Made by a program: the position numbers and the translations under genes. Positions 18,989 through 57,409 of a stretch of DNA of 64,000 nt are shown piece after piece. Source of the DNA: Candidatus Aenigmatarchaeota archaeon (GTDB lineage Archaea > Aenigmatarchaeota > Aenigmatarchaeia > CG10238-14 > SCSR01); NCBI GenBank assembly GCA_016213525.1, contig JACRAE010000004.1:13269-77268 (forward strand), given 5' to 3'. Numbering within the stretch: position 1 is the stretch's first letter; each line of letters opens with the position of its first letter. The notes under the pieces are model-generated. The model had not been told where the DNA came from. It saw only the letters and a program-made list of their open reading frames with translations, and searched no databases.

Positions 18989-19017
18989 ATTAAAAACGGT
19001 TGCTGGGAAGTATTTAT

Positions 19018-19770
19018 CTATTCCCATATTTTCCACGGGGGTCTGCTGAATTTCACCCCCGTCGTCCCGGTCTTTTCGCCGTTCCATATGTCGTTGAGCA
19101 TCTCGTACTCCTTGTACGTGTCCATGCACAGCCAGAAGCCGTCGTGCTCGAAGACCGCCAGCTGGCCCTCCTTGGACAGGCTCGTCAGGGGCTCCTCCTC
19201 GAGTACGGACTTCTCGTCCAGATAATCGAATATCTTCCTGTCAAAGACGAAGTAGCCGCCGTTGACTATCCCGGCCATCTTCGGCTTCTCCTTGAAGGAC
19301 TTTGCCAGCCCATCCTTGACCTCGATGATGCCGAACCTGGACATCGGGTGCACGCCGGTCAGGGTCGCCGTCTTCCCCATCTTCCTGTGGAACTCGAGCA
19401 GGGACTTGAGGTCCACATCCGACAGCCCGTCGCAGTAGTTGGCGAAGAACGTGTCGGACTCTATGAACTTTTCCGCCATCTTAATCCTGCCGCCCGTCTG
19501 CGTCTTCTCGCCCGTGTCGACGAACGTTATCCTGTAGTCCGGGTTCTTCCTCTTGAAGCCCTCGCTCGAAAAATACTCCCTTATCTGGGGCCCCCTGTAC
19601 CCGAGCAGCAGCACGAACCTCTTGAAACCCTGATGGGCGTAGATCTTCATCACGTGCTCGACGAGCGTCATCTCTCCTACCGGCACGAGTGGCTTCGGGA
19701 CCGTTTCTGTGAGCTCCCTGAGCCTCATTCCCTGGCCGCCGCACAGAATGACCGCCGGTATTTCGTCCAT
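19018..19770 (-). CDS. rfbF: Glucose-1-phosphate cytidylyltransferase
   Basis: AVILCGGQGMRLRELTETVPKPLVPVG...FVLLLGYRG..I.EYF...TFVDTGE.TQTGGRI...NYCDGLSDVD...HDGFWLCMDTYKE is the characteristic RfbF pattern. Trimmed to the ATG at 19770. Confidence 0.85.
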   Translation of the reverse strand: MDEIPAVILCGGQGMRLRELTETVPKPLVPVGEMTLVEHVMKIYAHQGFKRFVLLLGYRGPQIREYFSSEGFKRKNPDYRITFVDTGEKTQTGGRIKMAEKFIESDTFFANYCDGLSDVDLKSLLEFHRKMGKTATLTGVHPMSRFGIIEVKDGLAKSFKEKPKMAGIVNGGYFVFDRKIFDYLDEKSVLEEEPLTSLSKEGQLAVFEHDGFWLCMDTYKEYEMLNDIWNGEKTGTTGVKFSRPPWKIWE

Positions 19771-19809
19771 CGCAATCAATAGAATGTTTGATTTGGAACG
19801 TTTAAATCG

Positions 19810-24402: not shown

Positions 24403-25491
24403 ATGTCGACTTTCTGGGACGGCAAGAACGTGCTCATCACAGGCTGTACGGGCTTCGTCGGGTCATGGCTCGCAGAGGCGCTTGTGGAGAGGGGGGCGAA
24501 CGTCAACGGCTTCGTGAGAATCCAATCGGGGACGACCACGAAAAACATAGACCACCTACTTGCGGGCAAAAAAATAACCCTGCATAGAGGCGATCTCAAC
24601 GACTCGGGTTCTATAGCCGATATAATAAAGAAGTCGGAATCGGAGGTCGTGTTCCACCTGGCGGCGCAGAGCTTCGTGCCTCAGAGCTTCGAGTCTCCCG
24701 TAGACACGTTCCGCGCCAACGTCATAGGCACGACCAACGTCCTGGACGCCGTGAAGCAGGTCGACAAGGACATAGGTGTTCATTTTGCGGGCAGCAGCGA
24801 GGAGTACGGACTGGTGATAGTTGACGACTCCCAGTACAAGAGAATGATAGACAGGTACAAAGTCATTCTCCCGGCGCCTGAAACTGACGGCGACGGAAAG
24901 ATAGTGCCCGAGACCCCGATAAAGGAGACGAACCCGATGAGGACGGTGGGCATATCACCCTACGGGTGCTCCAAGAGGATGGCCGAGGAGATATGCCGCA
25001 CCTACGCGTCCTGCTATGGAATGAACGTCTACGTGACGCGCGCCTTCAACCACACGGGCCCGAGGAGGGGCAGGGAGTTCGTGTCCAGCAGGATAACCGA
25101 GCAGGTCGCAGAGGGGGTGAAGAACGGCAAGAGGGAGATTGTGCTAGGCAACCTCGAGTCGATAAGGGACTTCAGCGACGTGCGCGACATAGTCCGCGGC
25201 TACATGGCGGCCGTGGAGAGGGGGGTGCCGGGCGACGTCTACAACCTCTGTAGCGGGAAGGGCACCAGCATAAGACAGCTGATGGAAATGGCGGTCTCTA
25301 TTGCGAAGAAGGACTTCGGCCTCGGCCATGAAATGGAGTACGTCGCAGACGAGAAGCTGATAAGGCCGGCGGAACTGCCAATCATAGTGGGAGACTGCAG
25401 CAAGGCGAGGAAGGACCTTGGATGGAAGTCGGAAGTCCCCCTCGAGAAGACGCTGGGGGACATGATAGGATTCTACTGCGAGAGGATCTAG
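24403..25491 (+). CDS. SDR NDP-sugar 4,6-dehydratase, GDP-mannose 4,6-dehydratase (Gmd)-like, with internal insertion
   Basis: VLITGCTGFVGSWL, GSSEEYG, YGCSKRMAE, and the Gmd-type block NHTGPRRGREFVSSRITEQV...LGNLESIRDFSDVRD. About 48 residues separate SSEEYG from SPYGCSK, which is longer than usual. Confidence 0.65.
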   Translation: MSTFWDGKNVLITGCTGFVGSWLAEALVERGANVNGFVRIQSGTTTKNIDHLLAGKKITLHRGDLNDSGSIADIIKKSESEVVFHLAAQSFVPQSFESPVDTFRANVIGTTNVLDAVKQVDKDIGVHFAGSSEEYGLVIVDDSQYKRMIDRYKVILPAPETDGDGKIVPETPIKETNPMRTVGISPYGCSKRMAEEICRTYASCYGMNVYVTRAFNHTGPRRGREFVSSRITEQVAEGVKNGKREIVLGNLESIRDFSDVRDIVRGYMAAVERGVPGDVYNLCSGKGTSIRQLMEMAVSIAKKDFGLGHEMEYVADEKLIRPAELPIIVGDCSKARKDLGWKSEVPLEKTLGDMIGFYCERI

Positions 25492-36212: not shown

Positions 36213-37496
36213 TTATTTCCCAACCTTGCTTCTGATGAATTTGGAAATAACATCAACGACGTACTCCCTCTGGTCCCTACTTATCCCCTGATGGCATCCT
36301 ATCAGGAACGAGTTGTTGTGGATGAACTTTGTGTTTTTCAGGTCGCCGGATTTTCTGTACCTTATGTTCTTCATCACTGGCTGTATCGTCACGTCCCCGG
36401 TCATCAGGGGCCTCGTCTCGACGTTGTTCTTCTCCAGGAACCCGACAAGCTCGTTCTTCGTGAACGGCGCGTCGGGCGCGACGGTTATCGGGTAGCTGAA
36501 CCACACGTTCCTGGTGCCCGGCCTCTCCTTCTTCAGCATGAGATAGTCGGAATAAGCTCCCAGCTCCCTGTTCCAATAATCGGCGGTCTCCCTCCTGATG
36601 TCTATGAAGTCGTCGAGCTTCTTTATCTGCTGCAGGCCGAAGGCCGCCTGGAGCTCGGTCGGCCTGAAGTTGAACCCGTTGTTGAGGAAGAGGAACCTCT
36701 CGTCGATGTCGCTGTATTTCTGAGATATCTCGCTTCTGTTCTTCAGGTCCCTTATCCATCCGAACACCCTCATTGACCTCGACATCTCATGTATGTCCTC
36801 GTTGTCGGTCACGACCATGCCGCCCTCTATCGTGTTTATGTGGTGGGACAGGTAGAAGCTGAAGGTCCCGACGTCCCCGAACGTCCCTATCTTCTTGTCG
36901 CCTATCATCGCCCCGTGCGCCTCGCAGGAGTCTTCAATCACATAGAGGTCCCTCTCCTCGGCTATCTCCATTATCCTCTTCATGTCCGCCGGGTCGCCGA
37001 GCAGGTGGACCGGCATTATTGCCCTCGTCTTCTCCGTTATGGCGGCCTCTATCGACTCGACGCTGATGTCGTAGGTAGACATGTCGACGTCGGTTATGAC
37101 TGGCGTGAGGCCGACGTTCGCTATCGGCGTCACCGTCGTTATCCAGGTCACCCCGGGTGTTATCACCTCGTCGCCAGGCATCATCCTGCCCTTGAACGAG
37201 GGCTCCGTCAGGACCGAGAGCGCTATCAGGTTCGCGCTGGACCCGGAGTTGGTCATGGTGCCGTACCTCGAACCCAGGTATCCGGAGAAGCTTCCTTCGA
37301 ACTTCCTCACCTTCTCGCCCATTGTCACGAATTTCGAAAACAGAGAATCCACGACCTCCTTTACCTCCTCGCTGCCATAGGACGGCACCTGGAGCGACAC
37401 CTTGCTCTTCCCCGGGACGAACTTCTCATCCTCGCCCTCGAAGTAGGAGTCTATGAGCTTGTCGATCTTGCCCCTCAATTCGTCCTTGTTTTCCAT
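36213..37496 (-). CDS. DegT/DnrJ/EryC1-fold PMP-dependent NDP-4-keto-6-deoxyhexose 3-dehydratase (RfbH/ColD-like), no Fe-S Cys cluster
   Basis: RfbH-like N-terminus (LRGKIDKLIDSYFE...FVPGKSKV.LQVPSYG.EE). The normally Lys-containing active-site motif reads FSFYLSHHINTIEGG, with the same spacing as E1 'SFYPAHHITMGEGG', so the Schiff-base Lys is replaced by His. There is no Cys cluster downstream. Trimmed to the ATG at 37496. Confidence 0.7.
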   Translation of the reverse strand: MENKDELRGKIDKLIDSYFEGEDEKFVPGKSKVSLQVPSYGSEEVKEVVDSLFSKFVTMGEKVRKFEGSFSGYLGSRYGTMTNSGSSANLIALSVLTEPSFKGRMMPGDEVITPGVTWITTVTPIANVGLTPVITDVDMSTYDISVESIEAAITEKTRAIMPVHLLGDPADMKRIMEIAEERDLYVIEDSCEAHGAMIGDKKIGTFGDVGTFSFYLSHHINTIEGGMVVTDNEDIHEMSRSMRVFGWIRDLKNRSEISQKYSDIDERFLFLNNGFNFRPTELQAAFGLQQIKKLDDFIDIRRETADYWNRELGAYSDYLMLKKERPGTRNVWFSYPITVAPDAPFTKNELVGFLEKNNVETRPLMTGDVTIQPVMKNIRYRKSGDLKNTKFIHNNSFLIGCHQGISRDQREYVVDVISKFIRSKVGK

Positions 37497-37559
37497 CAAA
37501 GCACCATCATATTTATTGACTGGGAATTGAACACTTAAACACTTTATTCCGCGTACGCG

Positions 37560-40761: not shown

Positions 40762-41814
40762 ATGGCAGATTTAGAAAGCAAATTCAACGGCAGGACGGTG
40801 TTCGTGACCGGCGCGGACGGCTTCATAGGTTCGCACCTGACGGAGAAGCTCGTGTCGCTCGGCGCAAAGGTGCATGTTTTTGTGGAGTCTACGGCGCATG
40901 GTACCCTGACTAACATAGGGCACGTGGCCGACAAGGTGGTCGTCCACAGGGGTAACCTGACCGACGCGCACTCCCTCTTCATGGCCCTCAAGAAGATTAA
41001 GGAATCTGCTCACGACAAGACGTACATAATGCACCTTGCCGCCCAGGCCCACGTAGGGGAGTCCTGGGAGAGGCCCGTTGAGACTATAATGTCCAACACG
41101 ATGGGTACTTTCAACCTCCTACAGGCGATAGTCGACTCAGACATAGATGTCGAAAAGGTCGACTACGCAGGCACTTCAGAAGAGTACGGTAACAACTTGA
41201 ACCTCGACAACCTCGAGGACGAGACGATACACCTTCACGAGGACAGCCCGGTGAACCCGAAGAGCATATATGCGACCTCTAAGCTCGCGGGGGATTTCCT
41301 GACGATGAACTTTTTCCACGCATATGGCCTGCCTGGAGTGGTGACCAGGATGTTCAACAACTACGGACCCAGGCAAAGCCCCAGGTACATAACGGGCACG
41401 ATAATCACACAGGCCCTCTGCAGGGACAACATCATTCTTGGGAATCTGACGCCCAGGAGGGACTTCTGCTTCGTCGAGGACGGCGTCAGAGGCCACATGC
41501 ACACGACCCTCATGGGCAAGCCGGGCGAGATTTACTGCTATGGCTACGGGAACGACATATCAATTCAGGGATGGGCGGACCTCATCTTGAAGATAGGAAA
41601 GCAGAACGGCTACTGGGGCGACAAGAAGTTATCATCGACGAAGACCAGGTTCAGACCGGGGGAAAGCGACGTCCTGAGGCTGAAGGTCGGCTTCACCAAG
41701 CTCAATAAGCTGACCGGGTGGACGCCACAAGTCACTTGGGAAGAGGGGATACTTAGGACAATCGACTGGTATTCCAAGAACAAGGACAAGTGGGTCGGCC
41801 TGAAAGACTGGTGA
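40762..41814 (+). CDS. SDR NDP-sugar 4,6-dehydratase, Gmd-like
   Basis: VFVTGADGFIGSHL, GTSEEYG, YATSKLAGD, and FNNYGPRQSPRYITGTIITQA...ILGNLTPRRDFCFVED (Gmd-type LGNL..RD block). Confidence 0.7.
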   Translation: MADLESKFNGRTVFVTGADGFIGSHLTEKLVSLGAKVHVFVESTAHGTLTNIGHVADKVVVHRGNLTDAHSLFMALKKIKESAHDKTYIMHLAAQAHVGESWERPVETIMSNTMGTFNLLQAIVDSDIDVEKVDYAGTSEEYGNNLNLDNLEDETIHLHEDSPVNPKSIYATSKLAGDFLTMNFFHAYGLPGVVTRMFNNYGPRQSPRYITGTIITQALCRDNIILGNLTPRRDFCFVEDGVRGHMHTTLMGKPGEIYCYGYGNDISIQGWADLILKIGKQNGYWGDKKLSSTKTRFRPGESDVLRLKVGFTKLNKLTGWTPQVTWEEGILRTIDWYSKNKDKWVGLKDW

Positions 41815-41819
41815 GCTGG

Positions 41820-42812
41820 ATGTCCTTCTACGAGGGCAAGAGGGTCCTGGTCACCGGCGGCACTGGAATGATAGGATCCCATCTAGCGGAGATTCTCGTG
41901 GACCAGGGCGCGGACGTTAGGATTAACGAGTTCCGAACTCCGGCGGAAAATATTTTTTCCAATGAATATTTAAAAAAGATGGAAGTTATCAAAACAGACC
42001 TCACTGAAAGAGAGGGATGCGAAAAGGCCGTAAGGGGGATGGAAGTCGTTTTCAACCTCGCGACTAGGATAACGGGCGTCATCGGCAACATCGAACATCC
42101 CGTTCAGATGTTCACGCCGAATGTTTTGATGCAGACAAACATGATAGAGGCTGCCCATAAGGAAAACGTCGACAGGTATCTGTACCAGAGCTCGGCTTGT
42201 ATATACTCCTCTGAGTGCGAGATCCCCTACGAGGAAAAAGATGGAATGAAAAGCATCCCCGACAGGACCAACGAGGCCTACGCTTGGATGAAGAGGATGG
42301 GAGAGCAGCAGGCCATATTCTACCATAGAGAATTTGGAATGAAGATTGGCATATCCAGGCCTTTCAACACTTACGGGCCGCGGGATAACTTCGGAGGTGA
42401 GACGTCGCACGTTATACCCGCAATGATAGTAAAGGCAGAAAGCAGGACAGATCCGTTCAGTATATGGGGAGATGGTAGCTCGACGAGGGACTTCGTCTAT
42501 GTCACCGACATGGCCAAGGGCGCCATGAGGGTCTTGGAAAAGCATCCGAAGGCCGATCCAATCAACATAGCTAGCGGGAGAGAAATAAGCACACTGGATC
42601 TAGCCAAGATAATTTTGAAAGAGAGCGGATTTGTGGATGCGAAATTGGAAGTCGACGATACGAAGCCCGGCGGGCAAAGGAGGAGGTGCGGGAGCGTCGA
42701 AAAGATGCGGAATGTACTTGAATTCGAGCCCGAAGTTGGACTGGAGTCTGGTATAGCTAAGACCGTTAGATGGTTCAGAGAAAACAAAGATAAAATCAAA
42801 CGATACAAGTAG
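41820..42812 (+). CDS. SDR NDP-4-keto-6-deoxyhexose epimerase/reductase, GDP-L-fucose synthase (Fcl/ColC)-like
   Basis: VLVTGGTGMIGSHL, QSSACIYSSECEIPYEE, NEAYAWMKRMGE (YxxxK) and RPFNTYGPRDNF. Trimmed to the ATG at 41820, 5 nt after the upstream stop; the track's GTG at 41790 is inside the previous gene. Confidence 0.6.
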   Translation: MSFYEGKRVLVTGGTGMIGSHLAEILVDQGADVRINEFRTPAENIFSNEYLKKMEVIKTDLTEREGCEKAVRGMEVVFNLATRITGVIGNIEHPVQMFTPNVLMQTNMIEAAHKENVDRYLYQSSACIYSSECEIPYEEKDGMKSIPDRTNEAYAWMKRMGEQQAIFYHREFGMKIGISRPFNTYGPRDNFGGETSHVIPAMIVKAESRTDPFSIWGDGSSTRDFVYVTDMAKGAMRVLEKHPKADPINIASGREISTLDLAKIILKESGFVDAKLEVDDTKPGGQRRRCGSVEKMRNVLEFEPEVGLESGIAKTVRWFRENKDKIKRYK

Positions 42813-42819
42813 TGGGTAT

Positions 42820-44055
42820 ATGAGAATAACTCGATGCAGGATATGCAAGTCCGAAGACCTGTACAAATTCCTGGATTTGGGGATGCACCCGCCGTCTGAT
42901 GCTTTCCTGAAAAAGGATCAACTGGACTCTGTTGAAGAGAAATTTCCCTTGGATGTGTATTTCTGCGGCAGCTGCTGCCTGGTTCAACTGGGTTTCGTGG
43001 TGCCGCCAGAGAAGCTTTTCACAAAAAACTACGTCTACGTGTCTTCGATATCGACCACAATGAGGTCTAACTGGATGGACATGGCTGCTGAAATAAATAA
43101 GAAGTTTGGCGTCCCTGAGGGGTCTTTGGTGGTGGATATTGGCGGAAACGACGGGACCCTCCTAAAATGCTTCCATGACAGCGGTTTTAGTGTCACGACT
43201 CTGAACATAGACCCGTCCGACGTTGCCAAGACCAAGGTATCTGAGGATGTCGACGTCATTAATGATTTTTTTAGCGAAAATGTGGCGTCCGAAGTGGCGA
43301 AGAAGTTCGGCAAGGCTAGAATAATCACGGGTACTAACGTGTTCGCCCATGTCGACGATCTAGATGATTTCATGCGCGGCGTCGGTGCTCTGCTGGAAGA
43401 CGATGGTGTGCTAGTCCTAGAGTTCCCCTACTTGATGGACCTACTGGAGAAAATCGAGTTTGACACGATATACCACGAGCACCTCTCCTACCTTTCGGTT
43501 GGACCCCTTATCAAACTCTATGAGAGGTTTGGTATGATTATAGTCGACATAGACAGGATACCGGTGCATGGTGGGTCCCTGAGGATTTTTGTAAAGAAGA
43601 AGGGCCTTGGAACGGTCGCCGCCAAAAATGTGCAAGATCTCGTCAGGCTTGAAAAGGAGCGGGGTCTGTACGACTTGGAAACTTACAAGGACTTTTCAGT
43701 CAGGGTCTCTAATCTCAAAAAAAATCTCGTCGCTATGTTGAGGGACCTGAAATCAGGCGGAAAGAAGATAGCCGGCGACACGGCCCCCGCCAAGGGCAAC
43801 ACTCTCCTGAATTACTGCGGTATCGATGACAATGTCCTCGACTTCATAGCCGAAATAAATCCGATAAAACAGGGTCTCTACACTCCAGGAACACACATAC
43901 CTGTGGTACCACTCGAAAAAATCTACGAAGATAAGCCAGACTATCTGCTCATCTTGGCCTGGAATTTCAAGGACGATATAATGCGTCAGCAAAAAGACTT
44001 TCGTGAATCTGGCGGTAGGTTCATAGTTCCAGTGCCGGAGCCCGAGATAGTCTGA
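42820..44055 (+). CDS. NDP-hexose C-methyltransferase (TylCIII/EvaC-like; Zn-binding N-domain + class I MTase + C-methyltransferase C-domain)
   Basis: N-terminal four-Cys motif RCRICKS...YFCGSCCLVQL. SAM motif VVDIGGNDGTLL. NVFAHVDDLDDF. C-terminal ...TIYHEHLSYLS...DRIPVHGGSLRIF... is the typical three-domain layout of sugar C-methyltransferases. Confidence 0.7.
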   Translation: MRITRCRICKSEDLYKFLDLGMHPPSDAFLKKDQLDSVEEKFPLDVYFCGSCCLVQLGFVVPPEKLFTKNYVYVSSISTTMRSNWMDMAAEINKKFGVPEGSLVVDIGGNDGTLLKCFHDSGFSVTTLNIDPSDVAKTKVSEDVDVINDFFSENVASEVAKKFGKARIITGTNVFAHVDDLDDFMRGVGALLEDDGVLVLEFPYLMDLLEKIEFDTIYHEHLSYLSVGPLIKLYERFGMIIVDIDRIPVHGGSLRIFVKKKGLGTVAAKNVQDLVRLEKERGLYDLETYKDFSVRVSNLKKNLVAMLRDLKSGGKKIAGDTAPAKGNTLLNYCGIDDNVLDFIAEINPIKQGLYTPGTHIPVVPLEKIYEDKPDYLLILAWNFKDDIMRQQKDFRESGGRFIVPVPEPEIV

Positions 44056-45855
44056 CTATGTTTTGAATATGTAGTAGGTATTCTTGTGTTCCTTGAATAT
44101 CCCCTTCTCATACACGTTGTAGGTTCCTACATTCTGGAAGTTCTCACCCAAGAAATCCAAGTCCACTGTGTAGGCGCTGGAATTCAGATTTTTGTTGAGT
44201 AGCGACCCGACGAAAACGTCGGTATCGTCCACAACGATGTAATCGGCCCCGCTTTCATTCACAAAATTCAAAAACTGCTGCTGGCTCCCGTAACGAATCG
44301 CTATTGTGCTCCTCCCGGTCAAAAAATTGGTGACGTACGTGTCTGTCCATCTCAACATTATCTTGTCCTCAATCTCCGTGTTCTGCGTTATCCATGATTG
44401 CGCAAAGTCCCTCCTCACATCGTTTTTCAACGTGTAATTGCCCACCTGCAATATTATGAAGATTACTATCAGAACCGCTATAGCCTTCTTGTATTTGCTT
44501 CCTATTTTCTCGAAGGCCGAGAATGCTGCCACGCTAAGCAACGCTACCTGTGGGAAAAGTATGCTAAGTTCTATCGGAATTATTATGTTGGTAACCGCGA
44601 TTGCGAACGCGAAACCTACTATCACATAGACTAAGATTACATCGAGTTGTCTTTTCGCCCTCATTGCAGCCTTCACCAGATAAATCATGGAGAGCGCTGC
44701 TATCGGAAGCGTTAGGAAAGATATGAAAGATCTGTTAATCATGTTCTCATTTGAGAGGAAGTTCAGATTGAAATTGCCGCCTGTGAACGGAACTGGGAAA
44801 ACCGCCCGCAGGAAAATAAACAATTTGTCGCGGATTACCTGAGAAATTTCTTTCTGGGCGCTTGGTTCGTTTCCTGGTAGGAGAAGAATCTCATACTCGC
44901 TGTTTAGATTCACGAACCTGCTAGAGGAAGATGTGAGCGGCGACCCGAAAAACTCGTAGTTTCTGACAACCCATGGCGAAACTATGATCAGAGACAAAAT
45001 TATAGCCATGGTGTTCTGCTTGGTTATCACGCCCCTGAACCTGGACTTTACTAGAAATATCAGATATGTTATGCCCAGAATTATGGATTCCGGATAGTGT
45101 ATTAGGAAAGTAATGGTCAGAAACAAGAACGATAATGCCAGATTCTTGGACATGAAGAAATACAACGATGTTAGGGCCGCGTATGCGGTTATTATCCTGA
45201 CCTCGGTGTCCACCGACTGTCCTATGAAGAATGGGCTTACCGCTATGAATACCGAGGCGAAAAGCCCCGCCTTCCCGTAGGATCTTCCGATAAGAAATAT
45301 GGGAACTATCATTAGGGTGCCTAGGATGACATTCGTGAACTTCGCTATCTCGTAGCTCTGACCGAATACACTAAAAAATAATCCTGTGACGAAGTTGAAG
45401 AAAGGTGGCCTGTCGTCAACTGGACATGGAAAATCCGAGCATTGCATAGCCCCTATCGTGTTGACGTTGACGGAAAACCAGTTTGGGGTCGTGAAAGTCT
45501 TAGCCAGGTCCATATGAAGGAATGTATCGAACCCAAACGGGAAGTCGAATAGGAACTGCATCGCGAACCTCAGCAAAAATGCCGCCAACAGGACCAACAA
45601 AAGGCTTGTTGGGAACGATATTTTGGTTTCCGGCTTCCTCACCAACAAAATTAGCGGAAGTAAAAATACGGACACTAGGGAATACTCCAACGGGATGCCG
45701 AACAAGTGCAAAAATACCCCTACACCCCCCAAGAACAGAAATCCTAAAAAGAAACTCACAGCGAGCCTTTCAACACAGTCTAGACGCTTGAAGTAAGACG
45801 CGATGAAATATCCGGGCAGTACGGATATGAGAAGCATAGACACTATCTCGAACAT
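44056..45855 (-). CDS. GT-C fold membrane glycosyltransferase, PMT_2/ArnT-like (599 aa; paralogue of 37560..39374)
   Basis: DDRPPFFNFVTGLFFSVFGQSYEIAKFTNVILGTLMIVPIFLIGRSYGKAGLFASVFIAVSPFFI. It shares the N-terminus (..LPGYFIAS..KRL..VERLAVSF..) and the C-terminal NTYYIFKT with 37560..39374. Confidence 0.6.
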   Translation of the reverse strand: MFEIVSMLLISVLPGYFIASYFKRLDCVERLAVSFFLGFLFLGGVGVFLHLFGIPLEYSLVSVFLLPLILLVRKPETKISFPTSLLLVLLAAFLLRFAMQFLFDFPFGFDTFLHMDLAKTFTTPNWFSVNVNTIGAMQCSDFPCPVDDRPPFFNFVTGLFFSVFGQSYEIAKFTNVILGTLMIVPIFLIGRSYGKAGLFASVFIAVSPFFIGQSVDTEVRIITAYAALTSLYFFMSKNLALSFLFLTITFLIHYPESIILGITYLIFLVKSRFRGVITKQNTMAIILSLIIVSPWVVRNYEFFGSPLTSSSSRFVNLNSEYEILLLPGNEPSAQKEISQVIRDKLFIFLRAVFPVPFTGGNFNLNFLSNENMINRSFISFLTLPIAALSMIYLVKAAMRAKRQLDVILVYVIVGFAFAIAVTNIIIPIELSILFPQVALLSVAAFSAFEKIGSKYKKAIAVLIVIFIILQVGNYTLKNDVRRDFAQSWITQNTEIEDKIMLRWTDTYVTNFLTGRSTIAIRYGSQQQFLNFVNESGADYIVVDDTDVFVGSLLNKNLNSSAYTVDLDFLGENFQNVGTYNVYEKGIFKEHKNTYYIFKT

Positions 45856-45917
45856 AAACGTAATTTCACTCGAACAGTTATAAGATATATTTAAACGCGG
45901 ATTTTGATTAATATCTT

Positions 45918-46796
45918 ATGAAAATTTTGGTCACTGGTGGGTCGGGTTTTGTGGGTACTCATTTAATCAACAGGCTTGCGGAAGAACACGAAACCGTCAA
46001 CTTGGATATCAGGAGCCCCCCGCAGCCGAATAAGGCAGACACCTTCATCAAGTGCGACATAACCGACTACAATAGCCTCAAAAAAACATTCGAGAGCGAT
46101 CTGAAGGACATAGACGCCATTTATCACCTGGCTGGATTGTCGAGGGAATCTGAGAGCAACAAGTTTCCGGAAACTTACAACCGCACCAATGTCAATGGCA
46201 CGTTCAACGTAATAGACGCCTCCAGATTCACGAGCTCCAAGAAGTTTATTTTTGCATCCACATTCCTGGTTTACGGGGAGCCCGTATATCTACCGATAGA
46301 CGAAAATCACCCAAAGGACCCCAAGAGCATATACGCCTCTACTAAGCTCTGCGGGGAGACCATATGCAACGCGCATCAGGAAATATACGGCGTGAAGACT
46401 GTAAAGTTCAGGAAGAGCATAATCTACGGAGAGGACGATTTGGAGAAAAGAATAGTTTCGTTGTTCATAGACAAGGCGAAATCTGGAAAAGACCTCACGG
46501 TCTTTGGTAACAAGTTCCTAGACTTTGTCTATATAGAGGACGTCATATCTGCCTACATTTCCGCCCTGAAGAAGGACGTTACTGGAGACTTTAACATCGG
46601 AACTGGTGAAAAGGTCACGCTGCTAGACCTGGCTAACATGGTAAGGGACATAGTGAACCCCGGCGTGAAGGTGGTCGAAGACGGCCTGAGGACTGGAGAG
46701 ATAAAGGGCTATAACCCCGACATATCGAAAGCCAGAAAATTACTGGATTTTAACCCCCAACAAGATTTAATATCCTTCATCAAGAGATGTATATGA
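45918..46796 (+). CDS. NAD(P)-dependent SDR epimerase/reductase (candidate 4-ketoreductase partner of the downstream 3-dehydrase)
   Basis: MKILVTGGSGFVGTHL, ASTFLVYG and YASTKLCGE. 292 aa. Its stop overlaps the start region (ATG x3 at 46787/46793/46796) of the RfbH-like gene. Confidence 0.7.
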   Translation: MKILVTGGSGFVGTHLINRLAEEHETVNLDIRSPPQPNKADTFIKCDITDYNSLKKTFESDLKDIDAIYHLAGLSRESESNKFPETYNRTNVNGTFNVIDASRFTSSKKFIFASTFLVYGEPVYLPIDENHPKDPKSIYASTKLCGETICNAHQEIYGVKTVKFRKSIIYGEDDLEKRIVSLFIDKAKSGKDLTVFGNKFLDFVYIEDVISAYISALKKDVTGDFNIGTGEKVTLLDLANMVRDIVNPGVKVVEDGLRTGEIKGYNPDISKARKLLDFNPQQDLISFIKRCI

Positions 46797-48112
46797 TGGA
46801 TGAGGCTGAGATAAGAAACAAGATATCTTCCCTGGTAAGAGACTTCTTCGAACTGAAAAAATCAAAGAAATTCACCTTCGGAAAGGATCTTATTCAGTAT
46901 TCCGGTGATGTGAAGGACGAAAACGAGATTGACGCCTCCATACAAACGTTACTCGACGGTAGGCTCGCTGCTGGGAAGCAGGTAGAATCATTCGAGAACG
47001 AATTTGCAGATTATCTCGGCGCGAGACACTGCGTTGCCGTCGGCTCTGGAACAGCCGCCGATCTCATTAGCCTGAACGCGCTCCAGAACGAGCACCTAGA
47101 AAATCCGATGAGAAAGGGAGACGAGGTCCTAACGTGCGCCTTGAACTTCGCCACCCCTATGAGCTCGATACTTTTCAATGGTTACAAGCCTGCCCTAGTG
47201 GACACTACTCTTGGGAAGTACACCATGGACGTTGACGATATAGAAGCATCCATAACCGAGAACACCAAGGCTATACTAGCAGTCCACCTGTTCGGCAATG
47301 TTTGCAACCTAGACAAGATAATGAAGATAGCGAAGAAGCATGGTCTCTACGTAATTGAGGATTGCTGTGATTCCGCAGGTTCAATGTACGACGGCAAAAT
47401 GATAGGTACTTTCGGGGACATGGGTACCTTCAGCTTCTATCCTGCCCATCAAATGACGACTATGGAGGGCGGCATGATATCTACGAATAACGAGAACATG
47501 AACTACTTGCTCAGGTCCCTCAGGATGTGGGGAAGAGCTCTTCCTTGTCCCTACTGTGGTGACGATATGGGTAAGTCGTGCAAGCTGAGGCACAATCTCA
47601 ACATAGGCAACATAGGCAGATATGATTTGGCTTACCTTTTCATAAATCAGGGCCATAACTCGAAGCTCGTCGAGGTACAGGGAGCATTCGGAAGGGAACA
47701 GCTCAAGAAGCTCCCGAATTTCAACGAAATACGCCGGGATAACTTCAGGGAGACTGTAAAGGCCCTGAGACCGTACGAGGATCAATTAATTTTGCCAGAG
47801 GCTGAAAAGAATTCCGACCCGGCTTGGTACTCCATACCCCTGACAATCAGGGACGGGGCCGGTTTCAACAGGGAAGACATAACAAACATGCTCAAAGAGG
47901 CGAAGATAGAATTCCGCTACCTGTTCACGGGCAACATACTAGACCAGCCGGCCTTCAGAAACATAGAAAAGAGGATACACGGCGACCTTACGAACGCAAA
48001 CAAGACCACCACAGACTCGTTCTTCATAGGATGCTACCAGGGGATAAACCCCGACATGCGCGAGTATATCATAGAGAAAATGGTCGGATTCTTAGAAAAA
48101 CATAAGAACTGA
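46787..48112 (+). CDS. rfbH: CDP-4-keto-6-deoxy-D-glucose 3-dehydrase (E1/RfbH/DdhC)-like PMP enzyme with Cys cluster
   Basis: RfbH-like N-terminus (IRNKISSLVRDFFELKK...F.FGKD.IQYSGDV.DENE). The active-site motif FSFYPAHQMTTMEGG has His in place of the Lys. Four candidate Fe-S Cys are present (EDCCDSAG ... ALPCPYCGDDMGKSC), spaced C-x59-C-x2-C-x7-C. Confidence 0.75.
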   Translation: MYMMDEAEIRNKISSLVRDFFELKKSKKFTFGKDLIQYSGDVKDENEIDASIQTLLDGRLAAGKQVESFENEFADYLGARHCVAVGSGTAADLISLNALQNEHLENPMRKGDEVLTCALNFATPMSSILFNGYKPALVDTTLGKYTMDVDDIEASITENTKAILAVHLFGNVCNLDKIMKIAKKHGLYVIEDCCDSAGSMYDGKMIGTFGDMGTFSFYPAHQMTTMEGGMISTNNENMNYLLRSLRMWGRALPCPYCGDDMGKSCKLRHNLNIGNIGRYDLAYLFINQGHNSKLVEVQGAFGREQLKKLPNFNEIRRDNFRETVKALRPYEDQLILPEAEKNSDPAWYSIPLTIRDGAGFNREDITNMLKEAKIEFRYLFTGNILDQPAFRNIEKRIHGDLTNANKTTTDSFFIGCYQGINPDMREYIIEKMVGFLEKHKN

Positions 48113-48129
48113 GGGCTTCTGTTGGTTAT

Positions 48130-48870
48130 ATGAAAATAATAATTTTCATGCCAGCCTACAATGCCGCCAAGACCATAGAGAGCGTTTTTCCGAGAATCCC
48201 GAAAAGTGTGTACCGGAAATTACATAAAATAATCATAGTGAACGATGGTAGCAGGGACGACACCGCGAAAGTCGTAAAAAAATTATCTCGATTATACAAG
48301 AAAATCAAACTGATTACTCACAAGGTTAACAGGGGATATGCCCAGACGCAAAAAACTGGGTACAAAGCAGCCTTGGCGATGGGTGCGGACGTTGTAGTAA
48401 TGCTTCACTCCGACGGCCAATATTCTCCGGAATATCTCGACAAGCTTCTAGAGCCTCTCGAGAATAACAAAGCTGACGTCGTCCAGGGCTCCAGAATATT
48501 GGGCGGGGAGGCTTTGAAGGGAGGTATGCCCTCATACAAATTTGTGGGCAACAGGATATCGTCATTTATTGAGAATATAGTTTCCGGGCTCGATATATCG
48601 GAGTACCATTCGGGCTACATGCTCTATAATAAAAAGGCTCTGACAAAAATACCGTTCGAGAAGCTTGCAGACATTTACCATTCTCACAAGGGAACTTGCC
48701 ACTATGATGGTGAGATGATTTTGATATCGAACCGCATGGGACTCAGAATAAAAGAGGTTCCCATACCAACAATATACGCTGGCGAGATATCGCACGTAAA
48801 TCCTTACACGTACGGATTTGAGGTGCTGCAAGTTATAATCAGATATGTGACGAAACGTTACAAGTTCTAA
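48130..48870 (+). CDS. Glycosyltransferase family 2
   Basis: IIIFMPAYNAAKTI...IIIVNDGSRDDT...NRGYAQTQKTGY...VVMLHSDGQY (DxD-type region) ... VQGSR. Confidence 0.7.
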   Translation: MKIIIFMPAYNAAKTIESVFPRIPKSVYRKLHKIIIVNDGSRDDTAKVVKKLSRLYKKIKLITHKVNRGYAQTQKTGYKAALAMGADVVVMLHSDGQYSPEYLDKLLEPLENNKADVVQGSRILGGEALKGGMPSYKFVGNRISSFIENIVSGLDISEYHSGYMLYNKKALTKIPFEKLADIYHSHKGTCHYDGEMILISNRMGLRIKEVPIPTIYAGEISHVNPYTYGFEVLQVIIRYVTKRYKF

Positions 48871-48876
48871 ATCCTA

Positions 48877-49593
48877 TTATCTCTCTATCCTCAGCCTGAG
48901 AGCCTCCAGCATTATCCTTCCGTATCTCCAGCCTTGTTTGTAGAGTCCCGTGAACTTTGCTTTGCCGCTCTTCCTATTCCTCCAGATGGTGGGAACTTCC
49001 AATATCTTTACTTTATTGACAACCATGGGCTTCAATATCATCTCAGAAGTTATCTCGAATCCGTCGCTGTTAATCGTGATATTTTTAAATATACTTTTCC
49101 TGTAGGCCTTGAAGGCGTTCGAAAAGTCCTTGATGTTCTTCATGAAAACCAATGCTAGTGCCTTGTTGTAAATCCTGTGAGCTAGATATTTCATATACGG
49201 GTAGTCCACCGTACGTCCGCCCCTGATGAATCTGGACCCAACAACTATATCATAGCCCTTCTCAATCTCGCGCACCATTCTTGGAATCGTATTAGGGTCG
49301 TCCGACATGTCAGCCATGAACGGCATGACTATGCTTCCTCTGGAATTCTCCAGCCCTGTTTTTATGGCTCTGCCGAATCCGTTTGGATATTTCCTATGAA
49401 TCGCCCTCACGACCCTGTATTTTCTTGACAAATCGTCCACAATCTTTGGTGTGTTGTCGCTACTCACGTCGTCCACCAACAATATTTCAAATTTCAGGCC
49501 CCTACAGGCCCTCAAAAGACTGGAAACGCATCTTGAAAGGTTTCCCTCCTCATTGTGTGCTGGCACTATTATTGTCAACATGTTTTTCGTCAT
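48877..49593 (-). CDS. Glycosyltransferase family 2, polyprenyl/dolichyl-phosphate sugar synthase-like (second copy)
   Basis: LTIIVPAHNEEGNL...FEILLVDDVSSDNT...GFGRAIKTGL...VMPFMADMSDD...GYDIVVGSRF...FKAYRKSIF...SDGFEITSEM. Paralogue of 39995..40705. Confidence 0.7.
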   Translation of the reverse strand: MTKNMLTIIVPAHNEEGNLSRCVSSLLRACRGLKFEILLVDDVSSDNTPKIVDDLSRKYRVVRAIHRKYPNGFGRAIKTGLENSRGSIVMPFMADMSDDPNTIPRMVREIEKGYDIVVGSRFIRGGRTVDYPYMKYLAHRIYNKALALVFMKNIKDFSNAFKAYRKSIFKNITINSDGFEITSEMILKPMVVNKVKILEVPTIWRNRKSGKAKFTGLYKQGWRYGRIMLEALRLRIER

Positions 49594-49609
49594 TATTTAC
49601 ACCCAAATT

Positions 49610-50758
49610 TTATTTTATTTTTCTTACTGCCATCTCTATCTTGTCCATTGCGTCGGATATCTTGTCCTTGGATGTTGCATAACTCATCCTGATAAACCCT
49701 TCTCCCGAGCTTCCGAACTGATTTCCGGGCACGGTCAGGACCTTCGCCTCCCTGATAAGAAATTCTGAGAACTCCTGGGATTTCATGCCGCCGAGTGTCC
49801 TGAAGAATATGTAGAACGCCCCTTTTGGAATGATGAAATCGAATCCTATTTCTTTCAGCCTCTTCGAGGCAAATTTTCTCTTGTCGTCAAAAACGTTGAC
49901 GTTTTTTTGTATATCCTTTTCTGGTATTTTTAGGGCTTCCACCGCGCCATGTTGCAAAAATGCAGGAGATGATACTGTTATGGCGAACTTCAATTGGATC
50001 ATTTTCTTAATCATGTCAGAAGGTCCCTTGCAGTATCCTAGTCTGAACCCTGGCATGCTGTAAGTCTTCGAAAAGGTGTTGAACGTGACCACCTTGTCCT
50101 CCATACCGTTCATGCTGCCTATGCTGTAATGCTTCTCGTTGTCATAGACATATTTTTCGTACGCCTCGTCGGAAAAAATCAACATGTTGTTTTCCGTCGC
50201 TATATCTGCTATTTCTTCCATCTCCCTCTTGCTCATGACCGTACCCGTTGGATTTGATGGTGAGTTTAGGAAGAGTATTCTTGTTTTTTCGTCTATGGTC
50301 TTCCTGAGAATATCTGAATCGAAGGAAAATCCTTCGTTGGAAAGTTTTGTCGGAACCGGTGTTCCGTTTAGCATCCTGACAACTTCAGAATAGTCCATAT
50401 ATCCCGGATCTGGTATCAGGGTCTTTTCCCCCGGCTTCATGGCAGCGAAGGTAGCAATGAAGAGGGCTTCGCTTGAACCACATGTGACTATGATGTCATC
50501 CTCGCTTGAATCGATGCCGTTCTCTTCCCTCAGTTTTTTCACCAAGGCATGCCTCAGCTCCGGCACGCCGTTTGGCTGAGAATAGTTAGTGGTGCCGTTA
50601 TCTAATGATTCTTTGGTGGCATCTATGACGCTCTTCGGTGTGGGAAAGTCGGGTTCGCCTATGGCCAACGATATCACATCCTTCCTCTTCAGGGCGATGC
50701 CCAGTATTTCTCGTATGTCTTTGCCCGATTCTGGGACGTTAGAATCTTTCATCAACAT
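49610..50758 (-). CDS. PLP-dependent aminotransferase, class I/II (aspartate/aromatic aminotransferase-like)
   Basis: ISLAIGEPDFPTP...Y..P.G.PELR......DIIVTCGSSEAL...LIPDPGY..Y...LFLNSPSNPTG....IFSDEAYEKYVYD...TFSKTYSMPGFRLGY, with the PLP Lys in the SKT motif. Confidence 0.8.
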   Translation of the reverse strand: MLMKDSNVPESGKDIREILGIALKRKDVISLAIGEPDFPTPKSVIDATKESLDNGTTNYSQPNGVPELRHALVKKLREENGIDSSEDDIIVTCGSSEALFIATFAAMKPGEKTLIPDPGYMDYSEVVRMLNGTPVPTKLSNEGFSFDSDILRKTIDEKTRILFLNSPSNPTGTVMSKREMEEIADIATENNMLIFSDEAYEKYVYDNEKHYSIGSMNGMEDKVVTFNTFSKTYSMPGFRLGYCKGPSDMIKKMIQLKFAITVSSPAFLQHGAVEALKIPEKDIQKNVNVFDDKRKFASKRLKEIGFDFIIPKGAFYIFFRTLGGMKSQEFSEFLIREAKVLTVPGNQFGSSGEGFIRMSYATSKDKISDAMDKIEMAVRKIK

Positions 50759-55259: not shown

Positions 55260-56291
55260 TTATTTAAACAATCCTGGGTTTTCCTCTACCCATCCGTGGA
55301 CGCGCTTCACGCCCTCCTCCGGGGACACCTTCGGCTCCCACCCAAAGTCCTCCATGGCTTTGTTGATGTTGGATATGTAGACCTTCTGGTCCGCGGGCCT
55401 CCAGTCGAAATATTTTGTGGATATTTTCCTGTTGTTGATCTTTTCCAGCATTTCTATCAGTTCCAATAATGACAAAGTGTACTTGGCGCCGCCGCCTATG
55501 TTGTAGGCCTTGCCGGCCGTCTTGTTCCTGTTTTCAGACGCCATGTCGGCCGCCCTGCAGAGGTCCTCGATGAACAGGACGTCTCTGACCTGCTTGCCGT
55601 CGCCGAATATGTTTAGCGGCCTCCCGAAGAATGACGATATCACGAAGTGAGCCAGCCATCCCTGCTCTTCCTTTCCGAACTGCCTGGTCCCGTATATGCA
55701 GCTCTGCCTGAAACTGACCGCAGGCATCCCGTAGACGTGGCTAAAGTCCCTTACATAGAGATCGGCGGAGTACTTGGAGACCCCGTACGGGCTGTGCTTG
55801 TCGAAGTCTGTTGTAAAGGTTTCCGGTATGCCGTTCTTGAAGGCGGGGTCCGCGAACTTCCATCTGGTGGCGGCCTCCTCGATGTCTATGGAGTTGATGC
55901 CCTCGCCGTACACTTTGTTAGTGCTGGTGAAGAGCACGAACGGGTTCTCGTTTGAGAGCCTAGCCGCGTCCAATATGTTGAAGGTCCCGAGTATGTTGAT
56001 TTCCATGTCGTTCCGGGGATCTGTGACGGAATCTGTGACCGTCACCTGGCCCGCGGTGTGTATAATCATGTCCCTACCCCTCACGGCGTCCACCATCGCC
56101 TTCGGGTCCTTGACGTCGGCGTTGAGGAATGTGAGCCCTTCCTTGTGTCTGGACTTCAGCCAATCCATGTTTTGCTTGGAGCCGAACCTGTAAAAGTTGT
56201 CCAGGACCGTGACCTCCTCGCCCTTGTTCAAAAAGTAGTCTGCGAAGTTGCATCCTATGAAACCGCAGCCCCCAGTGATTAGTATGGACAT
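55260..56291 (-). CDS. SDR epimerase, CDP-paratose 2-epimerase (RfbE/Tyv)-like
   Basis: MSILITGGCGFIGCNF...VLDNFYRFGSKQNMDWLK, STNKVYG, HSPYGVSKYSAD, QGW, GDGKQVRDVLFIEDL, YNIGGG...LSLLELI and DQKVYISNINK. From memory, these blocks track Salmonella CDP-tyvelose 2-epimerase closely. Trimmed to the ATG at 56291. Confidence 0.6.
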   Translation of the reverse strand: MSILITGGCGFIGCNFADYFLNKGEEVTVLDNFYRFGSKQNMDWLKSRHKEGLTFLNADVKDPKAMVDAVRGRDMIIHTAGQVTVTDSVTDPRNDMEINILGTFNILDAARLSNENPFVLFTSTNKVYGEGINSIDIEEAATRWKFADPAFKNGIPETFTTDFDKHSPYGVSKYSADLYVRDFSHVYGMPAVSFRQSCIYGTRQFGKEEQGWLAHFVISSFFGRPLNIFGDGKQVRDVLFIEDLCRAADMASENRNKTAGKAYNIGGGAKYTLSLLELIEMLEKINNRKISTKYFDWRPADQKVYISNINKAMEDFGWEPKVSPEEGVKRVHGWVEENPGLFK

Positions 56292-56293
56292 TT

Positions 56294-57409
56294 TTAGCCA
56301 CCCAAATATCTTATTCTCTCTTTCTCTGCCTGGTCGAACTTGTCGACCGCCTTCTGGTCGTCGGACCACTCTACCAGCTTCTCCATTCCGCTCTTCAGGG
56401 ACCATTTTGGCTTGAAACCCAGCTTCTTCTCGGCTCTGCCTATGTCAGCAAAGTCGTGCCTGCTGTCCCCCGGCCTGAACTCGTTGGTTATCTTTGGCTC
56501 GATTTCCCTGCCGTTCAGCTCGATGAGCGTCCTCGCTATCTGCTCTATTGTCACCGACTTCCCGGTCCCGAGGTTGAATACGTCGGTCTCCCTTCCCTTC
56601 TCCAATGCGAGCACGTTGCCCATGGCGACGTCCTCTACGAAAATAAAGTCCCTTACCATCTTTCCGTCCTCGTATATCACGGGTGGATTATCGTTCTTCA
56701 CCCTGCTTAGGAAAATGGCGGCCACCCCCGTGTATGGGTTTCCCAGGCTCTGCCTCGGACCGTAGACGTTGAAATATCTGAACGTTATGGACGGTATCTT
56801 AAGGGTGTCCCCGAACATGAGCGTCAGCCTCTCTGTGTCGTATTTCGACAGGGCGTACGCGGCGAGGTTCTGAGGCGGCTTGTCCTCGGTTATTCCCACT
56901 GGAGCCATCTCATTTCCGCAGTGTGGACATAGGACCTCCCACTGTCCCCGCGCGAGCTGGTCTACGGGCCTGTTCACGGGATTTATCACGCCGTGCTGGC
57001 CGCATCTGTAAGAACCCTCGCCATATATGCTCTTCGAGCTCGCGCTCACTATTTTTTTCAGGTTGTTTTTGATCTCTGGGTTCTCTATTATGGCCTCGTA
57101 CATGTTGGCTGTGCCTATGCTGTTCGCCATCATGTACCTCACCGGCTGGTACATGCTCTGTCCCATGCCGACCATGGCGGCTAGGTGGATGACCGCCTCG
57201 ACGCCCGTCAATGCCTTGACCCATGTCTTCTTGTCCAGTATGTCGCCGCTCGTGAGCTCGGCTGTGCCGTTGATGTAAGTCGGTCTGCTGCCGCCGTGGA
57301 CCTGGTTCTCAAAATTATCGAGTATCCTGACGTCGTGCCCCCTCTCCACCAGCAGGTCCACTGTGTGGCTCCCTATGAAACCTGCGCCCCCCGTGACCAG
57401 AACTTTCAT
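56294..57409 (-). CDS. NAD-dependent SDR epimerase/dehydratase with Cys/His-containing insertion
   Basis: [24 protein letters not shown] and YALSKY. A roughly 35-residue insertion between the Ser and YxxxK elements carries YRCGQHG ... LCPHCG, a C-x2-H ... C-x2-C candidate zinc site. Confidence 0.7.

Follow-up and report, generated by a model that had tools for sequence, protein, structure and literature searches.

How would an enzyme that needs two low-potential electrons per turnover be supplied with them in a genome in which neither its dedicated reductase nor a ferredoxin or flavodoxin is found? The question is raised by a stretch of 64,000 nucleotides (nt), hereafter the window, from Candidatus Aenigmatarchaeota archaeon (assembly GCA_016213525.1, contig JACRAE010000004.1, positions 13,269 to 77,268 of the forward strand), in which the open reading frame (ORF) at 46787..48112 on the plus strand encodes a predicted iron-sulfur (Fe-S) and pyridoxamine 5'-phosphate (PMP) enzyme of the E1, or RfbH, type. 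Its expected products are 3,6-dideoxyhexoses, sugars familiar from textbooks as constituents of Salmonella and Yersinia O-antigens. The dedicated reductase, E3, combines in one protein a plant-type [2Fe-2S] ferredoxin domain with flavin adenine dinucleotide (FAD) and NAD(P)H domains. The reading preferred here, with a probability of about 0.6, is that the ORF encodes a functional E1/RfbH-type 3-dehydrase which would draw on a generic electron donor, as SpnQ does, and would serve a cytidine diphosphate (CDP)-3,6-dideoxyhexose route; cofactors, nucleotide, product and donor are predictions.

Identity of the 3-dehydrase and its cysteine motif

The E1 ORF and the short-chain dehydrogenase/reductase (SDR) ORF that overlaps its start (45918..46796) were both recovered on the plus strand where the first-pass annotation of this DNA had placed them, with lengths of 441 and 292 amino acids (aa). 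An alternative ATG at 46796 would give an E1 protein of 438 aa, the length of the database copy P0002. The NCBIfam equivalog model for RfbH (NF011936) matched the E1 ORF over model positions 3–438 of 440 with 440.2 bits, above the curated cut-off of 423 (439.8 bits in a genome-wide profile search with the same model), and the aminotransferase models of NCBIfam scored far under every cut-off. Yersinia E1 (3bcx/3bb8) was the top match in the PDB, with query residues 4–435 aligned to residues 1–432 of the 3bcx chain at E=1.3e-99, followed by ColD (GDP-4-keto-6-deoxymannose 3-dehydratase, 2gms/3b8x) at about 1e-54 (7e-55). An AlphaFold2 model built with 36 homologues as input had a mean predicted local distance difference test (pLDDT) score of 92.8. 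Foldseek matched it best to 3bb8/3bcx (template modelling score, TM, 0.91/0.95) and then to ColD (TM about 0.81).

The earlier claim that histidine replaces the Schiff-base lysine was borne out. In the string FSFYPAHQMTTMEGG of the protein, residue 221 is His; HMMER aligned this residue to His220 of Yersinia E1 (3bcx), and the cysteine loop fell on the corresponding E1 loop. No lysine occurs at residues 205–262, and an alignment of homologues (A1) shows no invariant lysine. The active-site and putative cluster segment spans 47366..47581 on the plus strand, with Cys194 at 47366-47368, His221 at 47447-47449, Cys254 at 47546-47548, Cys257 at 47555-47557 and Cys265 at 47579-47581. Because the curated equivalog score exceeds its cut-off, sequence and fold match those of solved E1, and the His and Cys residues are conserved, the identity proposed by the first-pass annotation is supported: judged by sequence and modelled fold, 46787..48112 is a genuine E1/RfbH-class 3-dehydrase for nucleoside diphosphate (NDP)-4-keto-6-deoxyhexoses, of the PMP type by prediction. 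Proteins from archaeal metagenome-assembled genomes already carry the RfbH label in existing database annotation.

With E1 of Yersinia pseudotuberculosis and Salmonella (AscC/DdhC/RfbH, the CDP-6-deoxy-L-threo-D-glycero-4-hexulose 3-dehydrase) the archaeal protein shares full-length homology, the fold, the His-for-Lys exchange, a cysteine in the IEDCCD segment and a cysteine-rich loop after WGR. It differs in that the loop is three residues longer, reading L-P-C-x2-C-x7-C rather than the canonical C-x-C-x7-C, in that its genome, that of a DPANN archaeon, lacks E3 (AscD/RfbI), and in that its gene follows a coupled SDR gene instead of forming part of a ddhD-A-B-C operon. Fold and His-for-Lys exchange are also common to ColD, an enzyme that regenerates PMP with glutamate; ColD has neither the cysteine loop nor an Fe-S cluster, whereas the archaeal E1 has the loop.

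Cysteines occur in the E1 ORF at 193/194, 254, 257 and 265, with a spacing of C194-x59-C254-x2-C257-x7-C265. Conservation was counted over the query and its 120 best database homologues (n=121). C194, H221 and C265 were invariant (121/121) and C254 was present in all but one (120/121), in agreement with A1; owing to this conservation across 121 sequences the Cys/His pattern is regarded as real and not as a product of chance. The [2Fe-2S] ligands of Yersinia E1, which we take to be C193, C251, C253 and C261 (C-x57-C-x1-C-x7-C), were reportedly described by Agnihotri et al. in 2004. The spacing given for the archaeal protein by the first-pass annotation was exact, and its likeness to this motif held in part only, since the correspondence is not one-to-one and one ligand position appears displaced by approximately three residues. 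Most relatives, including the canonical type, carry G-R-x-C-x-C...C after the conserved WGR, and in the query and the 19 sequences nearest to it (53-87% identity) this segment reads G-R-A-[LIMV]-[PR]-C-x-x-[C/H]-G...C. The canonical first loop cysteine is a leucine in the query, and a Cys or His stands instead three residues past C254; within the clade of the query, position 257 is occupied by either. The homologues at 53-87% identity otherwise retain the same catalytic and ligand residues.

In a maximum-likelihood tree the 20 PCxxC/H sequences formed one clade with support of 100/100. Sequences with all three loop cysteines (C-x-C-x2-C) are their neighbours, the canonical C-x-C type is placed inside another branch (support 100/99), and the loop-less ColD-like proteins lie outside. 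One member of the clade, P0016, is encoded on a closed 874,869-bp chromosome (CP066684.1, Candidatus Aenigmatarchaeota archaeon). The simplest reading of these sequences is that one cluster-ligand position has apparently moved about three residues downstream in the clade of the query. The exchange of Cys and His at position 257 is more in keeping with a metal ligand than with a redox disulfide, and Cys254, Cys257 and Cys265 are, together with Cys194, putative ligands of a predicted cluster. The loop has a lower pLDDT (76-83) in the AlphaFold2 model, as expected for a model from which the cofactor is absent. The string CPYC within the loop was considered as a glutaredoxin motif and, not being conserved in the clade, was treated as coincidence. 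By these sequence criteria the enzyme belongs to a distinct subclade, marked by the shift of one ligand position, and its gene is located in a DPANN glycosylation island.

Electron donors in the genome and in the phylum

The window lies on contig 2 of an assembly of 662,247 bp in seven contigs (G000), with an estimated completeness of 89% and contamination of 0.13%. The first-pass annotation had seen no E3 in the window and had suggested a search of the rest of the genome for an E3-like [2Fe-2S] flavoprotein. That search confirmed the absence and extended it to the whole assembly, in which the Pfam domains NAD_binding_1 (PF00175), FAD_binding_6 (PF00970) and Fer2 (PF00111) had no match; as a positive control, each of the three matched 9–12 of 14 control genomes. 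A tblastn search of this genome with the 232-aa neighbour of Halanaerobium rfbH, which resembles ferredoxin-NADP reductase (FNR), returned nothing. Flavodoxin_1 and Fer4_7 (Pfam) likewise had no match in the genome. Regular-expression scans of its ORFs of at least 40 aa gave spurious matches only, with no ferredoxin-type CxxCxxCxxxCP, plausible rubredoxin or classical thioredoxin motif.

The Fe-S assembly genes SufB/SufD are encoded in the genome. A lipoyl-synthase-like radical SAM protein is encoded outside the window, at 244466-245350 of contig C3; such an enzyme would also need a low-potential donor. With this protein and two geranylgeranyl-reductase-like flavoproteins encoded in the genome, the donor question goes beyond E1. 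The donor gene would lie in the unassembled portion (approximately 11%) or be of an unrecognised kind.

Several proteins were considered as substitutes for E3 and set aside. The Pyr_redox_2 matches comprise a thioredoxin reductase, two proteins named geranylgeranyl-reductase-like from their sequence alone and a TfrA-like flavoprotein, and no evidence links any of them to E1. The last of these is a TfrA/SdhA-like fumarate reductase flavoprotein at 24275-25996 of contig C7, which scored 559 bits to TfrA, below the cut-off; the classical CxxCxxCxxxCP 4Fe-4S motif expected in an Fe-S partner of TfrA/SdhA was found nowhere in the genome. In the window, the SDR at 56294..57409 (minus strand) carries an insert of about 35 residues (C-x2-H...C-x2-C, zinc-ribbon-like) between the catalytic Ser region and YxxxK, and no close orthologue of it was found in the syntenic metagenome contig L012. 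As an SDR without flavin it cannot split a hydride into single electrons, and it was rejected as well.

A survey of the phylum covered 301 sampled genomes. RfbH matched above its cut-off in 16, and NAD_binding_1, the FNR-type domain, was absent from 11 of these, including four that are at least 90% complete (G013, G043, G087 and G125). At 19 dehydrase loci the flanks were searched to about 5 kb, or to 10 kb in two cases, and no FNR-like ORF was found. G114, a genome of the same class as the present one, does encode an NAD_binding_1 protein, which is a 241-aa module of the flavin-reductase type with no Fe-S domain and lies approximately 147 kb from E1. As no E3 was found in this genome or near E1 at the 19 loci, the archaeal enzyme is not classed with the E1/E3 two-protein systems.

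Small 4Fe-4S ferredoxins were present in all five PF00175-negative, RfbH-positive relatives checked (for example a 92-aa protein in G013), which makes a generic donor of the kind used by SpnQ the likeliest. The ferredoxin of G013 adjoins a gene for a 344-aa protein, and the homologue of that gene in the present genome has no ferredoxin beside it.

SpnQ (TDP-4-keto-2,6-dideoxyglucose 3-dehydrase of Saccharopolyspora spinosa) is an E1-type enzyme that uses ferredoxin/FNR or flavodoxin/reductase pairs instead of E3 (PMC8987622). The gene cluster of SpnQ has no dedicated E3 either, and SpnQ offers, by its published function, the closest functional analogy for the electron supply. The two differ in context: SpnQ serves an antibiotic pathway, with a TDP-2,6-dideoxy sugar as substrate, whereas the archaeal setting points to CDP sugars and no 2,3-dehydratase is evident there. 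With a characterised precedent in SpnQ, and with the E3-less state common in the phylum, the absence of E3 is only moderately unusual. The absence noted by the first-pass annotation is thus real, but less remarkable than was supposed.

A bacterial locus of Halanaerobium saccharolyticum (L028) served for comparison. Its gene order is rfbH, FNR-like gene, rfbF, rfbG, and its RfbH is 42% identical to the query. In this locus an NAD_binding_1 reductase directly follows rfbH, whereas the archaeal genome has nothing similar. The reductase (9323-10021 of L028) is a 232-aa FAD/NAD module without a ferredoxin domain, that is, a shortened E3, which indicates that partner reductases vary even in bacteria.

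Gene context of the E1 gene

The stop codon TGA of the SDR gene (46794-46796) overlaps three in-frame ATGs of the E1 gene, and the two genes share 10 nt, or 1 nt (TGATG) if the ATG at 46796 is the start. The SDR (45918..46796, plus strand) is of the extended type (Pfam Epimerase, E=1.9e-49), with its NAD motif GGSGFVG and its YASTK (YxxxK) intact. Overlapping SDR-E1 pairs recur in four different relatives and were seen in L010/L011, L012/L013 and L051, with identities of 41-62% (aa) in L010 and L012; the pair is missing from L030, L052 and L053. The proposal that this SDR is the 4-ketoreductase partner of E1, acting on the 3,6-dideoxy product, is strengthened by the overlap and its recurrence in relatives, but not by a match to a specific reductase family; it is plausible, and the SDR is treated as a candidate.

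The genes that would supply the substrate lie elsewhere in the window, on the minus strand. The ORF at 19018..19779 encodes a glucose-1-phosphate cytidylyltransferase (RfbF)-like protein with 224.7 bits to TIGR02623 (cut-off 300). Full-length identity is 38% to the RfbF encoded beside Halanaerobium rfbH, and RfbF-like proteins whose genes adjoin E1 in eight genomes of the phylum are 36-50% identical to it. Paired with it is an NDP-hexose 4,6-dehydratase-like SDR (17972..19129), whose true start is probably near ORF residue 46-55. This protein scored 166.8 bits to the CDP-glucose 4,6-dehydratase model TIGR02622 (cut-off 278), and the models for LegB and for dTDP-glucose dehydratase scored about as high. 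It is 37-51% identical to SDRs encoded between the RfbF-like and E1 genes in G132, G087, G201, G195, G114 and G125. The rfbF/rfbG-like assignment made at first pass thus falls short of the NCBIfam cut-offs, but the two genes are orthologous to pairs that stand directly beside E1 genes in relatives.

A further gene (55260..56291, minus strand) encodes an SDR that the first-pass annotation had described as CDP-paratose 2-epimerase-like. It proved to be a strong homologue of CDP-tyvelose 2-epimerase (TyvE), with full-length matches to PDB 9rl0 (T. atlanticus, E=2e-87) and 1orr (E=1e-70). The T. atlanticus homologue, however, acts on CDP-glucose (PMC13098431). The L012 orthologue of the protein in the window is 71% identical (aa) and is encoded 3.5 kb upstream of the SDR-E1 pair. 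The orthology of the RfbF-like and dehydratase-like genes and the presence of the TyvE-like gene support a CDP-3,6-dideoxyhexose route, which the locus would fit with nucleotide and product predicted from gene context.

Genes for glycosyltransferases of family GT2 and of the PMT_2-type GT-C class flank E1 here and in most relatives, which fits transfer of the sugar via a polyprenyl-phosphate carrier. A GT2 gene (48130..48870, plus strand; Pfam Glycos_transf_2, E=1.9e-27; polyprenyl-phosphate glycosyltransferase-like matches in NCBIfam) begins 17 nt downstream of E1 and is probably in one transcription unit with it; a GT2 gene also adjoins E1 in L051, L052, L053 and L030. The GT-C membrane glycosyltransferase of 599 aa (44056..45855, minus strand; Pfam PMT_2, E=5.5e-11) is encoded pointing away from the SDR-E1 unit, with 62 nt of AT-rich sequence between the two, an arrangement repeated in L051. 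A second GT2, which is DPM1/AglJ-like (48877..49593, minus strand; Glycos_transf_2, E=6e-35), is kept in L051 and in L012 (62% aa identity in the latter). Beside the E1 unit lies a class I (AspAT-like) aminotransferase gene (49610-50758, minus strand), with counterparts at 11318-12448 of L012 and 8810-9946 of L051. It is a second copy; the other, on contig C1, is 46% identical.

Upstream of the GT-C gene, a cassette on the plus strand (40762..44055) encodes a 4,6-dehydratase-like protein, an Fcl-like protein and a Zn-domain C-methyltransferase, as identified with Pfam and NCBIfam; this cassette may belong to the same pathway as E1. The C-methyltransferase (Methyltransf_13/23/14) is encoded at 42820..44055 on the plus strand and also at 2028-3263 of L051 and 9842-11020 of L052. 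The whole block at 40762..50758 has the order 4,6-dehydratase-like, Fcl-like, C-methyltransferase, GT-C, SDR, E1, GT2, GT2 and class I aminotransferase. It is matched gene for gene in L051, a contig of another sample in which E1 is 87% identical. The G+C content is 0.44-0.49 for the block and about 0.44-0.51 for the region around it, below the 0.55-0.58 of the remaining window and the value of about 0.56 for the contigs; the block behaves as one transferable unit.

A ColD-like 3-dehydrase paralogue is encoded at 36213..37499 on the minus strand. The histidine is kept and the cysteine loop is absent, in this protein and in its clade. In G139, G090 and G051 its orthologues adjoin orthologues of the Gmd-like gene at 24403..25491 (plus strand), which suggests that the paralogue and the Gmd-like gene form a separate GDP-linked 3,6-dideoxy route in the locus.

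Proposed pathway, alternatives and significance

In the proposed pathway the substrate of E1 would be supplied, to go by gene context, by the RfbF-like and 4,6-dehydratase-like pair at 17972..19779. To go by its family, E1 would expel the 3-OH of an NDP-4-keto-6-deoxyhexose, most likely CDP-4-keto-6-deoxyglucose, with the help of PMP and the catalytic His221. A cluster, probably [2Fe-2S], on Cys194/254/257/265 would then reduce the enzyme-bound 3,4-glucoseen intermediate with two single electrons, and these electrons would most likely come from a generic low-potential donor, by analogy with SpnQ. The translationally coupled SDR (45918..46796) would most likely reduce the 4-keto group and so yield a CDP-3,6-dideoxyhexose, a possible substrate for subsequent epimerisation by the TyvE-like enzyme (55260..56291). 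The neighbouring glycosyltransferases (GT2 and GT-C) would transfer the sugar to surface glycans, with polyprenyl phosphate as carrier.

Several observations weigh against this reading. The RfbF-like and dehydratase-like genes, besides scoring below the NCBIfam cut-offs, lie 27 kb from E1, and the nearer 4,6-dehydratase/Fcl-like/C-methyltransferase cassette could supply another substrate. The coupled SDR gave generic matches only in NCBIfam and the PDB and belongs to no specific 4-reductase family found there. The third cysteine of the motif is off its canonical position, and the Fe-S cofactor is a prediction. Since no ferredoxin, flavodoxin or rubredoxin was found, the assembled 89% lacks even the generic donor that is proposed. 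As the first-pass annotation had held, no report of archaeal 3,6-dideoxyhexoses was found in the literature searched.

The position of the cassette gives rise to a serious alternative, if an unlikely one, in which E1 would act with the genes at 40762..44055 in a branched-sugar pathway. The nucleotide might then not be CDP; a methyl group would be added to C3 or C5 of the 4-keto-3-deoxy intermediate before the SDR reduces it, and the product would be a C-methyl-branched 3,6-dideoxyhexose. Conservation of the block gene for gene from dehydratase to aminotransferase in L051 favours such a pathway, but L051 is a close relative and not an independent case. The low G+C island that behaves as one unit speaks for it too, as does the more distant L052 (E1 58% identical), where a C-methyltransferase of the same Pfam architecture lies 2.5 kb from E1 in another gene order and an RmlC-like isomerase is also present. 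That methyltransferase is, however, absent from the E1 contexts of L010, L012, L030 and L053, no known example ties E1 to such an enzyme, and the presence of RfbF-like and TyvE-like genes speaks for CDP sugars. A further reading, which concerns the P-C-x2-C/H subclade, is distinctly unlikely: its members might take electrons from a donor other than FNR, ferredoxin or flavodoxin (a thioredoxin-reductase-type flavoprotein, a reductant of the host or an unrecognised partner), or might be redox-independent with a metal site of three Cys and one His or of four Cys, and could in either case make a C-methyl-branched 3,6-dideoxy sugar of a kind not yet known from Archaea.

That E1 works with no external reductant at all appears quite improbable. 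The enzyme would then either hydrolyse an enamine as ColD does and regenerate PMP with glutamate, or act as a 4-aminotransferase in the manner of SpnQ deprived of its reductase, the cysteine loop being structural or binding a metal that takes no part in electron transfer. The genome has no FNR, ferredoxin or flavodoxin matches, as this would require, and the second-copy class I aminotransferase by the E1 unit here, in L012 and in L051 could recycle glutamate. Yet the clade strictly retains the four-ligand loop, with a Cys/His exchange at one position, while from the window's true ColD-like paralogue the loop is missing altogether. Without a reductase SpnQ does behave as an aminotransferase, but E1 and ColD had no transaminase activity under the SpnQ conditions (PMC8987622). 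Moreover, as the genome is 89% complete and the lipoyl-synthase-like enzyme also needs a donor, an unseen donor probably exists. The same lack of a recognisable donor, together with the location on a low G+C island, could be taken to mean that the E1 gene is a horizontally acquired, inactive remnant. This is very improbable indeed, for the ORF is intact with all catalytic and ligand residues present, homologues at 53-87% identity keep those residues, and translational coupling and neighbourhood are conserved.

The preferred reading is accordingly retained as that of a functional E1-type 3-dehydrase with a SpnQ-like donor in a CDP-3,6-dideoxyhexose route. Its impact is limited by the frequency of the E3-less state in the phylum and by the characterised precedent of SpnQ. 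The clade-specific ligand shift, to Cys or His, provides a defined target for spectroscopy. A survey of 12,939 genomes describes tyvelose, paratose and abequose as rare sugars, essentially those of enterobacteria and chiefly of Salmonella and Yersinia (PMC7725333). For ultrasmall DPANN archaea, an intact E1-type pathway would imply that such sugars occur on their surfaces as well, with possible importance for host-cell contact.

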